IMG/VR virus record: IMGVR_UViG_2548876945_000012
Direction: 5' to 3' (one strand)
Length of the DNA stretch: 24,914 bases
Origin: a virus
Lineage: Duplodnaviria; Heunggongvirae; Uroviricota; Caudoviricetes
Shown in pieces: positions 19,658-19,670 of this stretch (position 1 is the stretch's first letter; each line of letters begins with the position of its first letter). Position numbers and translations under genes: made by a program. Below the pieces are notes generated by a model. The model did no database searches and had not been told where the DNA came from. It was given only the letters and a program-made list of their open reading frames with translations.

Positions 19658-19670
19658 GCTCTTTAACAAT
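19658..19670 (+). promoter_or_regulatory. boxA-like antitermination element
   Basis: GCTCTTTAACAAT matches the rrn-type boxA consensus (GCUCUUUAACAA) as I recall it; preceded by an imperfect hairpin at 19637..19654. Confidence 0.4.

Follow-up and report, generated by a model that had tools for sequence, protein, structure and literature searches.

The boxA signal of the ribosomal RNA (rrn) leaders lies between a boxB and a boxC and acts with NusB, NusE, NusA, NusG, SuhB and S4, with no need for a phage protein; these untranslated leaders have a hairpin immediately 5' of boxA and precede a long untranslated RNA. As boxA alone suffices for the rrn-type anti-Rho activity, the flanking boxB and boxC are accessory. 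Long untranslated RNA is a natural substrate of Rho. In phages lambda and P22, the boxA of nutL stands in the leader of the early-left (PL) transcript, is followed by a boxB and goes with a protein of the N family bearing an arginine-rich motif. In the N-less lambdoid phages HK022 and HK639, the PL transcript starts with putL, a structured RNA of ~60-70 nt, and put, made of two tandem long stem-loops, acts in cis on RNA polymerase (the beta' zinc-binding domain) to suppress termination. For the N-less lambdoid phages other than HK022, there is to our knowledge little explanation of how transcription of the early operons gets past Rho and terminators. A stand-alone consensus boxA also precedes the long untranslated transcripts of the CRISPR arrays of Salmonella and other bacteria, where boxA-dependent Nus complexes shield the array RNAs from Rho (Stringer et al. 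2020, PMC7665894). Outside rrn too, the 5' UTR of suhB carries a boxA less than 50 nt from the start codon, where the Nus complex acts as a repressor of translation and favours termination by Rho (Baniulyte et al. 2017, PMC5725501).

We analysed a stretch of viral DNA of 24,914 nt (IMG/VR virus record IMGVR_UViG_2548876945_000012; the window), whose PL leader RNA contains the rrn-type boxA GCUCUUUAACAAU (19658..19670, plus strand). This boxA stands back-to-back with the terminator of an oppositely oriented gene, and the two form a two-strand module at the PL-proximal edge of a variable cargo slot. Similarly to the rrn leader, to which its boxA is identical over 13 nt, the module has a hairpin immediately 5' of boxA and an untranslated leader before a long untranslated RNA, and its proposed action would not need a phage protein. 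Unlike in the rrn leader, the hairpin 5' of boxA forms best on the opposite strand, as a terminator, and its loop is not conserved, the promoter is controlled by a phage repressor, and no conserved GU-rich boxC follows boxA, since the sequence diverges ~8 nt after it. As in the CRISPR leaders, a stand-alone consensus boxA precedes a long untranslated transcript, and the block of Rho termination shown for the CRISPR arrays (PMC7665894) is proposed here by analogy; unlike them, what goes untranslated here is the antisense RNA of an inserted accessory gene within the early operon of a phage, and that gene's terminator is physically joined to boxA. Similarly to the nutL of lambda and P22, the window has its boxA in the PL leader, but it lacks both a boxB 3' of boxA and a protein of the N family or with an arginine-rich motif, and its next sizeable gene is antisense. 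With the suhB 5' UTR, the window shares a GYTCTTTAANA element less than 50 nt from a start codon, whereas the conservation of the module tracks no downstream plus-strand ORF; the change equivalent to the suhB C4T/T6C mutation would turn GCTCTTTAACAA of the window boxA into GCTTTCTAACAA. This stand-alone rrn-type boxA, in a two-strand module that flanks antisense cargo, is a new form of a known signal. The 5' end of the same leader is predicted to carry a conserved structured RNA, which we call D1 (~62 nt; 19564..19625, plus strand) and which is the more novel object of the two.

The early-left leader of an N-less prophage

The window is an E. coli-type prophage with a P22-type integrase, the integration site of which adjoins a tRNA gene (23474-23546, minus strand) and proA. 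Its immunity region matches those of the Shigella phages SfIV and SfV and the e14 repressor YmfK. The cI/YmfK-like repressor gene of the LexA family (18806..19480, plus strand; Peptidase_S24, E 1.5e-26; phrog_4, transcriptional repressor), the homologues of which bear the RefSeq label ymfK/LexA family, is followed by the intrinsic terminator of the repressor transcript (19492..19519, plus strand; stem 19492-19511, GAACCTGC-TTCG-GCAGGTTT, then T7), and the equivalent site is an annotated terminator in SfV and SfII. Next comes a strong sigma70-type promoter (19520..19547, plus strand; TTGACA-16-CATAAT, an 11/12 match). In lambda, cI and PL are transcribed in the same direction, and we regard this promoter as the PL equivalent because it points the same way as cI; the TACAT-A-ATGTA palindrome across its -10 element is the presumed operator. 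The early-left genes, recognised from Pfam, PHROG and the ORF translations (20872..23456, plus strand), encode an HD-domain 5'-deoxynucleotidase-like protein, a DUF551 protein, the product of an unknown gene, an excisionase and the P22-type integrase, and the opposite strand carries cro, a CII-like gene, the O gene, a Q-like gene, the lysis genes and the terminase genes. Also on that strand (3976-5608, minus strand), a portal-protein fragment of 163 aa (5117-5608) overlaps a baseplate-hub/DNA-circularisation-like ORF (3976-5247), and head genes are missing between the two. The prophage has probably undergone an internal deletion and may be defective.

The plus strand reads GCTCTTTAACAAT at 19658-19670, and this is the sole match in the window, on either strand, to the boxA 12-mer, to the 13-mer (with up to one mismatch) and to GYTCTTTAANA, the gamma-proteobacterial boxA consensus (PMC5725501), of which UGCUCUUUAACAA is the rrn form. 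Dinucleotide shuffles of the window give 0.03 matches expected by chance, and the boxA of the E. coli K-12 rrnB leader (...GCGGCACTGCTCTTTAACAATTTATCAG...) is identical to the motif at 13 of 13 positions. An earlier note made from the DNA alone had pointed to a boxA consensus in the PL leader, and the match proved exact: it begins ~104 nt after the predicted PL start (111 nt after the promoter), leaves 44 nt to the ATG at 19715 and has no paired base in the predicted minimum free energy fold of the leader. Its strand is the sense strand of the PL leader, whose transcription is predicted.

The same note had seen no recognisable N gene, and two kinds of search agree with it. First, N was absent from the Pfam and PHROG scans of the major ORFs from the integrase to the terminase, in which the sole antiterminator was Q-like (12839-13633, minus strand). 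Second, a scan for N-terminal arginine-rich motifs gave no credible candidate. No boxB was found 3' of boxA, where the segment 19658-19716 folds no better than its shuffles (z = +0.62). The first downstream protein, too, is acidic and not N-like, as had been noted: it is encoded by a small ORF (19715..19921, plus strand; 68 aa) with a strong Shine-Dalgarno sequence (GAGGAGG), has a pI of 4.78 and two arginines, and matches only phrog_1744 (E 6e-35). The suggestion that N had been lost from this particular prophage fails, because SfIV, the leader of which is 96.5% identical to 19480-19930 of the window, is viable with the same arrangement, and SfIV, SfII and SfV have all been reported without N (PMC3851460). 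The isolated phages Kati and PhiR29 have part of the same leader in common with the window.

The hairpin-boxA module and its antisense cargo

Immediately upstream of boxA lies an intrinsic terminator of the minus strand (19627..19656), made of a stem-loop (19637-19656) and a U-tract (the A-run 19627-19636 of the plus strand), which the terminator scan matched on the minus strand as AAGCGTCCTGTAGGGCGCTT TTTTGTTGCT. Read on the minus strand, the hairpin has eight contiguous pairs (-12.1 kcal/mol) followed by U6, whereas on the plus strand it has an A.C mismatch and reaches -7.5 kcal/mol; this preference for the minus strand marks it as a terminator rather than a boxB. Together with boxA it forms a recurrent unit that comprises the A-run, GCGCC, a variable loop, GGACGC-TT, one variable base (or none) and GCTCTTTAA(C/A)AATCTGGAT. 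Among the copies, the hairpin loop varies while the stem and the A-run are kept, and the sequences diverge completely ~8 nt after boxA, where the cargo begins. Rfam gave no match over the module.

A pattern scan for the hairpin end joined to boxA found the module in at least 120 viral contigs, and D1 lies upstream in at least 104 of the 120 module-bearing loci among the matches listed; the Klebsiella phage Kp4882-1 carries the module without D1. D1 and the module occur together in 1036 of the 5426 complete E. coli genomes (~19%), and boxA was not found in the relatives SfV, SfII and e14. As the pattern itself required GCTCTTTAA, conservation was checked in an independent set of loci, retrieved through D1 without reference to boxA. 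Conservation in related prophages, which the earlier note had set beforehand as its test of refutation, was evident there: an intact GCTCTTTAA follows all 12 of the 12 distinct variants of the adjacent hairpin, and remains invariant beside a linker base (A, C, T or none), a loop, one stem position and a 3' flank that all vary. Furthermore, GCTCTTTA occurs on the PL strand within 600 nt downstream of D1 in 21 of 123 unique loci, against ~1.1 expected in total and two on the strand opposite PL in the same 123 loci. The orientation of boxA relative to PL is the same in every copy examined. All the copies of the module are homologous, so that this conservation counts few independent events. With that reservation, these comparisons confirm, at the level of sequence, that the motif is real and evolutionarily maintained, with a selection-like conservation. 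Since boxA is conserved on the sense strand of an N-less PL leader, a Nus-dependent, N-independent action would be the most economical reading.

The published genome-wide boxA list holds prophage entries with GCTCTTTAACA located 3 nt upstream of genes annotated as cI or cII, and also 31 nt upstream of the hypothetical genes ECUMN_0866 and EFER_0580 (PMC5725501, supplementary table). Some of its prophage entries may be copies of the hairpin-boxA module.

What follows boxA is, as a rule, a gene of the other strand. Counting ORFs of 70 aa or more, the one that comes first after boxA runs antisense to PL in 69 of the 73 unique module contexts, as compared with 32 of the 95 D1 loci that lack the module (Fisher p = 3e-17), and its stop codon is often 13-30 nt from boxA; since a minus-strand ORF ends beside the module in these 69 of 73 contexts, we assign the hairpin as the terminator of the antisense accessory gene. 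The cargo ORFs fall into ~14 unrelated BLAST families (87-255 aa) and gave no Pfam or PADLOC match. In the window, the cargo (moron) gene (19893..20327, minus strand; 144 aa; phrog_5286, E 1.5e-89) has the PGAP name 'ECs1072 family phage-associated protein', is the counterpart of SfIV orf36 and matches one of the two genes that were described as SfIV-specific. Its 3' end overlaps that of the small acidic ORF by 29 nt, and the two could be a regulator-cargo pair. A homologous small ORF (phrog_1744-like) precedes a different cargo gene in another locus (L159). The downstream gene that matters is this antisense ORF and not the small acidic ORF.

According to the ORF calls, ~950 nt of the PL RNA (19922..20871, plus strand), made of the antisense of the cargo and an ORF-free stretch, have no credible plus-strand ORF. 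The composition of the plus strand after boxA shows one modest stretch with C in excess over G (rut-like), at 20206-20283. The ORF-free part of this region also holds a full-length, sub-threshold match to the prophage sRNA family STnc100 (20438-20660, plus strand; 43.1 bits for a gathering score of 47; E 1.2e-7), and similar matches lie downstream of D1 or of the module in ST64B (L011, 2350-2468) and Kp4882-1 (L008, 3193-3330).

A conserved structured RNA at the start of the leader

D1 scores 82.5 bits in the window with its covariance model, R1. It has two covarying helices: P1 (19564-68 with 19621-25), which shows one A.C mismatch in the window, and P2 (19595-99 with 19612-16), with the loop GCAUAUGAAG, then AUGA. 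Between them lies a core of 22 nt (19571-19592) that is nearly invariant in the alignment of the copies, an invariance which is partly forced by the retrieval pattern and also holds in the copies retrieved through the boxA module. In the alignment of 85 distinct sequences, 88.8% of the cells are paired, versus 23-43% in slid controls; 11 of the 12 pairs show double changes, and none of 500 shuffles reached the observed covariation. A possible third short hairpin inside the core, P1a, is weakly supported. Each phage has one copy according to R1, and a second copy that would be the putR analogue of the PR operon was found neither in the window nor in 15 related loci. No Rfam model matched D1, whether in the window (searched to E <= 10) or in five related loci (to E <= 1). 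From this comparative evidence, we conclude that D1 is a conserved structured RNA that was previously undescribed.

BLAST found 19560-19627 conserved on its own in many temperate phages that otherwise differ, among them SfII, phiNP, ST64B, YeP1, AH07, ZF40, SPN3UB, mEp237 and the Aeromonas phage pAEv1818. In the annotated phage loci that were retrieved, mEp237 apart, D1 comes directly after the repressor gene. Promoter-like sites (at least 10/12) stand just upstream of D1 in 59 of 204 unique contexts, versus 4 of 612 controls, with a -10 element ending ~20-23 nt before the core, which places D1 at the 5' end of the transcript. The strand of D1 was assigned from this promoter context, since the wobble pairs (12 G.U versus 8 A.C, terminal pair excluded) are uninformative. 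D1 is present in many genera of the Enterobacterales and in 1363 of the 5426 complete E. coli genomes, in none of which it is annotated; the large N-less group of SfV/ST64B/e14/Gifsy-like phages is found in about a quarter of the complete E. coli genomes, including K-12, where e14 carries D1 between ymfK and ymfJ (NC_000913, 1202104-1202178, minus strand). Apparent D1 cores in Alpha- and Betaproteobacteria, in Gordonia and in a haloarchaeon (L252, L265, L282, L267 and others; 21-29 bits with the covariance model) were rejected as a coding coincidence on the opposite strand (..CYFVGFLP..); such false cores in high-GC DNA are a caution for pattern-based retrieval.

Other conserved leader segments accompany D1 in some subgroups. 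In Gifsy/mEp237-like phages, D1 is followed by a second segment, D2 (..GCGCAGCAGGU..AACGUUCCGCYGGCCGGCGAUAAGGCA..), which is found at 2075-2140 of L012, 2065-2125 of L013, 2460-2500 of L008 and in many IMG/VR loci, is absent from the window and gave no Rfam match; in Kp4882-1, D2 precedes the hairpin-boxA module without D1. The ST64B-type leaders (L011, 2069-2260; L032, L076 and L122) have a conserved non-coding stretch after D1, GACAGGUGUCUUCGGGAGGGG ... CCCCGCCCGAAGAUAC, and in two loci (L150 and L162) the boxA module comes after this ST64B-type stretch.

Among the described RNAs, put is the closest to D1 in setting. Similarly to the putL of HK022 and HK639, D1 is a structured RNA of comparable size with which the PL transcript of an N-less lambdoid phage begins, and, as in HK639, it occurs in a single copy on the left side only. 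Unlike put with its two tandem stem-loops, D1 has a closing helix, P1, that encloses the hairpin P2. The possibility that D1 is the put of HK022/HK639 was rejected: the putL and putR sequences read from both genomes are unrelated to it, and the D1 model has no match in either. The hexamer GGAUGA, common to D1 and the putL of HK022 only, was deemed coincidental. In HK639, the annotated putL-like region (L137, 34187-34312, minus strand) contains, after the put stem-loops, AGCUCUUUGCGA, a string that partly resembles boxA. Readings of D1 as a hammerhead or a k-turn were made by eye only and were discarded, the conserved strand order not fitting a hammerhead.

The position of D1 at the transcript start and the lack of N suggest, by analogy, a put-like role, which we nevertheless rate as doubtful because strong intrinsic terminators downstream are not general: they occur in only 22 of 133 contexts, and a general need for intrinsic-terminator read-through after D1 was therefore rejected. 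With the same reserve, we consider it possible that D1 represents a new class of cis-acting RNA, unrelated to put, which would modify the early-left elongation complex and, alone or with boxA, might provide a protein-free early antitermination in the N-less SfV/ST64B/e14/Gifsy-like phages.

Proposed action of boxA and its alternatives

Starting from the features computed here (motif identity, strand, conservation, module architecture, minus-strand terminator, antisense-cargo association and N absence), we propose with moderate confidence, by analogy with the rrn and CRISPR leaders, that the 13-mer functions as an rrn-type boxA in the nascent PL RNA of this N-less prophage of the SfIV/SfV/e14-like kind, where it would be one half of a two-strand punctuation module and confer resistance to Rho. 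On the minus strand, the hairpin and its U-tract would terminate the transcript of the antisense accessory (moron) gene, thereby keeping it out of PL and the repressor gene. On the plus strand, boxA would emerge immediately 3' of the hairpin and bind NusB-NusE(S10), and this complex, with NusA, NusG and SuhB, would make the PL elongation complex resistant to Rho, as happens in rrn and in the CRISPR arrays of Salmonella; the binding of Nus factors and the protection from Rho are here drawn from established knowledge of boxA. Transcription from PL could then run through the ~1 kb that is not translated (the cargo antisense and the sRNA-like region) as far as the early-left genes, xis and int among them. 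A phage N protein would have no part in this PL antitermination, and none would have been lost. Knowing that long untranslated RNA is a Rho substrate and that boxA complexes protect from Rho, the simplest reading is that boxA would make the antisense insertion non-polar.

Several observations weigh against this protection from Rho. SfV, SfII and e14 lack boxA, a conserved boxC is absent and the rut-like stretch is modest; moreover, the boxA of suhB, which is equally near a start codon, represses expression (PMC5725501). In addition, boxA is not obligatory for antisense cargo, since the 32 of 95 D1 loci without the module also start with a minus-strand ORF call.

The best-surviving alternative, unlikely though it seems to us, is that the 13-mer has no Nus function and is kept as part of the terminator unit, i.e. 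in the 3' UTR of the cargo mRNA, or as a patch of homology for cargo exchange. It accounts well for the homology of all the copies, for their constant attachment to a terminator hairpin that is clearly a minus-strand element, and for the position of the module at the very boundary where the sequences diverge into different cargos. It accounts poorly for a 13/13 identity to the rrn boxA that is improbable by chance, for a motif more invariant than the adjoining stem, loop and linker base, and for an orientation relative to PL that never changes; furthermore, we know of no function for AUUGUUAAAGAGC upstream of a terminator.

A Nus-binding boxA would also fit a composite, RNA-only nut site, in which D1, put-like or in the manner of N-boxB, would engage RNA polymerase or NusA while boxA would recruit NusB/S10, the whole giving the PL operon a fully processive, N-independent antitermination at intrinsic and Rho-dependent terminators. 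D1 indeed opens the PL transcripts, like putL (PMC9378689), in phages with no annotated N, and precedes most of the listed copies of the module; mEp237 and mEp460, which carry D1, come from the mEp collection, described as Nus-dependent phages (PMC11893012). Yet the spacing between D1 and boxA is variable (14-17 nt in most copies, 140 to ~700 nt in others), most D1 loci have no boxA, and Kp4882-1 has the module without D1. Besides, a strong intrinsic terminator on the plus strand occurs within 1.5 kb in only 22 of 133 D1 contexts, and D1 has neither sequence nor model similarity to put. Taken together, these points make the composite site quite improbable, somewhat more so than a boxA kept by linkage.

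Compared with the anti-Rho boxA that we favour, a repressive boxA of the suhB type would work in the opposite sense, the Nus complex blocking translation of the small ORF and promoting Rho termination, so as to attenuate the early-left operon. The 44 nt to the ATG fall inside the 50-nt window before the start codon that was used to find the suhB-type targets, and the mechanism has been demonstrated for suhB and a gene for a ParE-like toxin (PMC5725501). However, the small ORF is found with this cargo type and one other only, and a role directed at translation cannot explain the conservation of the module, because most of its contexts have no plus-strand ORF after boxA, the antisense stop codon often being so close; we consider this reading very unlikely. 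Finally, although consensus boxA elements are known in lambdoid nut sites and beside prophage cI and cII genes (PMC5725501, supplementary table), and the window prophage looks partly deleted elsewhere, it is hardly credible that boxA is a relic of an N-dependent nutL left after the loss of N and boxB, given the same leader in the viable SfIV and in the isolated Kati and PhiR29, the published absence of N from SfIV, SfII and SfV (PMC3851460), the lack of boxB and, unlike in a relic, the invariance of the motif across many diverged copies.

If the proposed Rho-resistance role of boxA is true, phages could place 'moron' genes in the opposite orientation inside an essential operon, and avoid polarity, by the simple means of a stand-alone boxA joined to an antisense gene's terminator. 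The module has gone unannotated though it is present in ~19% of the complete E. coli genomes. D1, for its part, is a candidate for a second RNA-based antitermination system, and the copy carried by e14 makes it directly testable in K-12. Together with rRNA, suhB and the CRISPR arrays, the early operons of temperate phages, outside the N-dependent nut sites, would then join the few natural targets of the host Nus complex.
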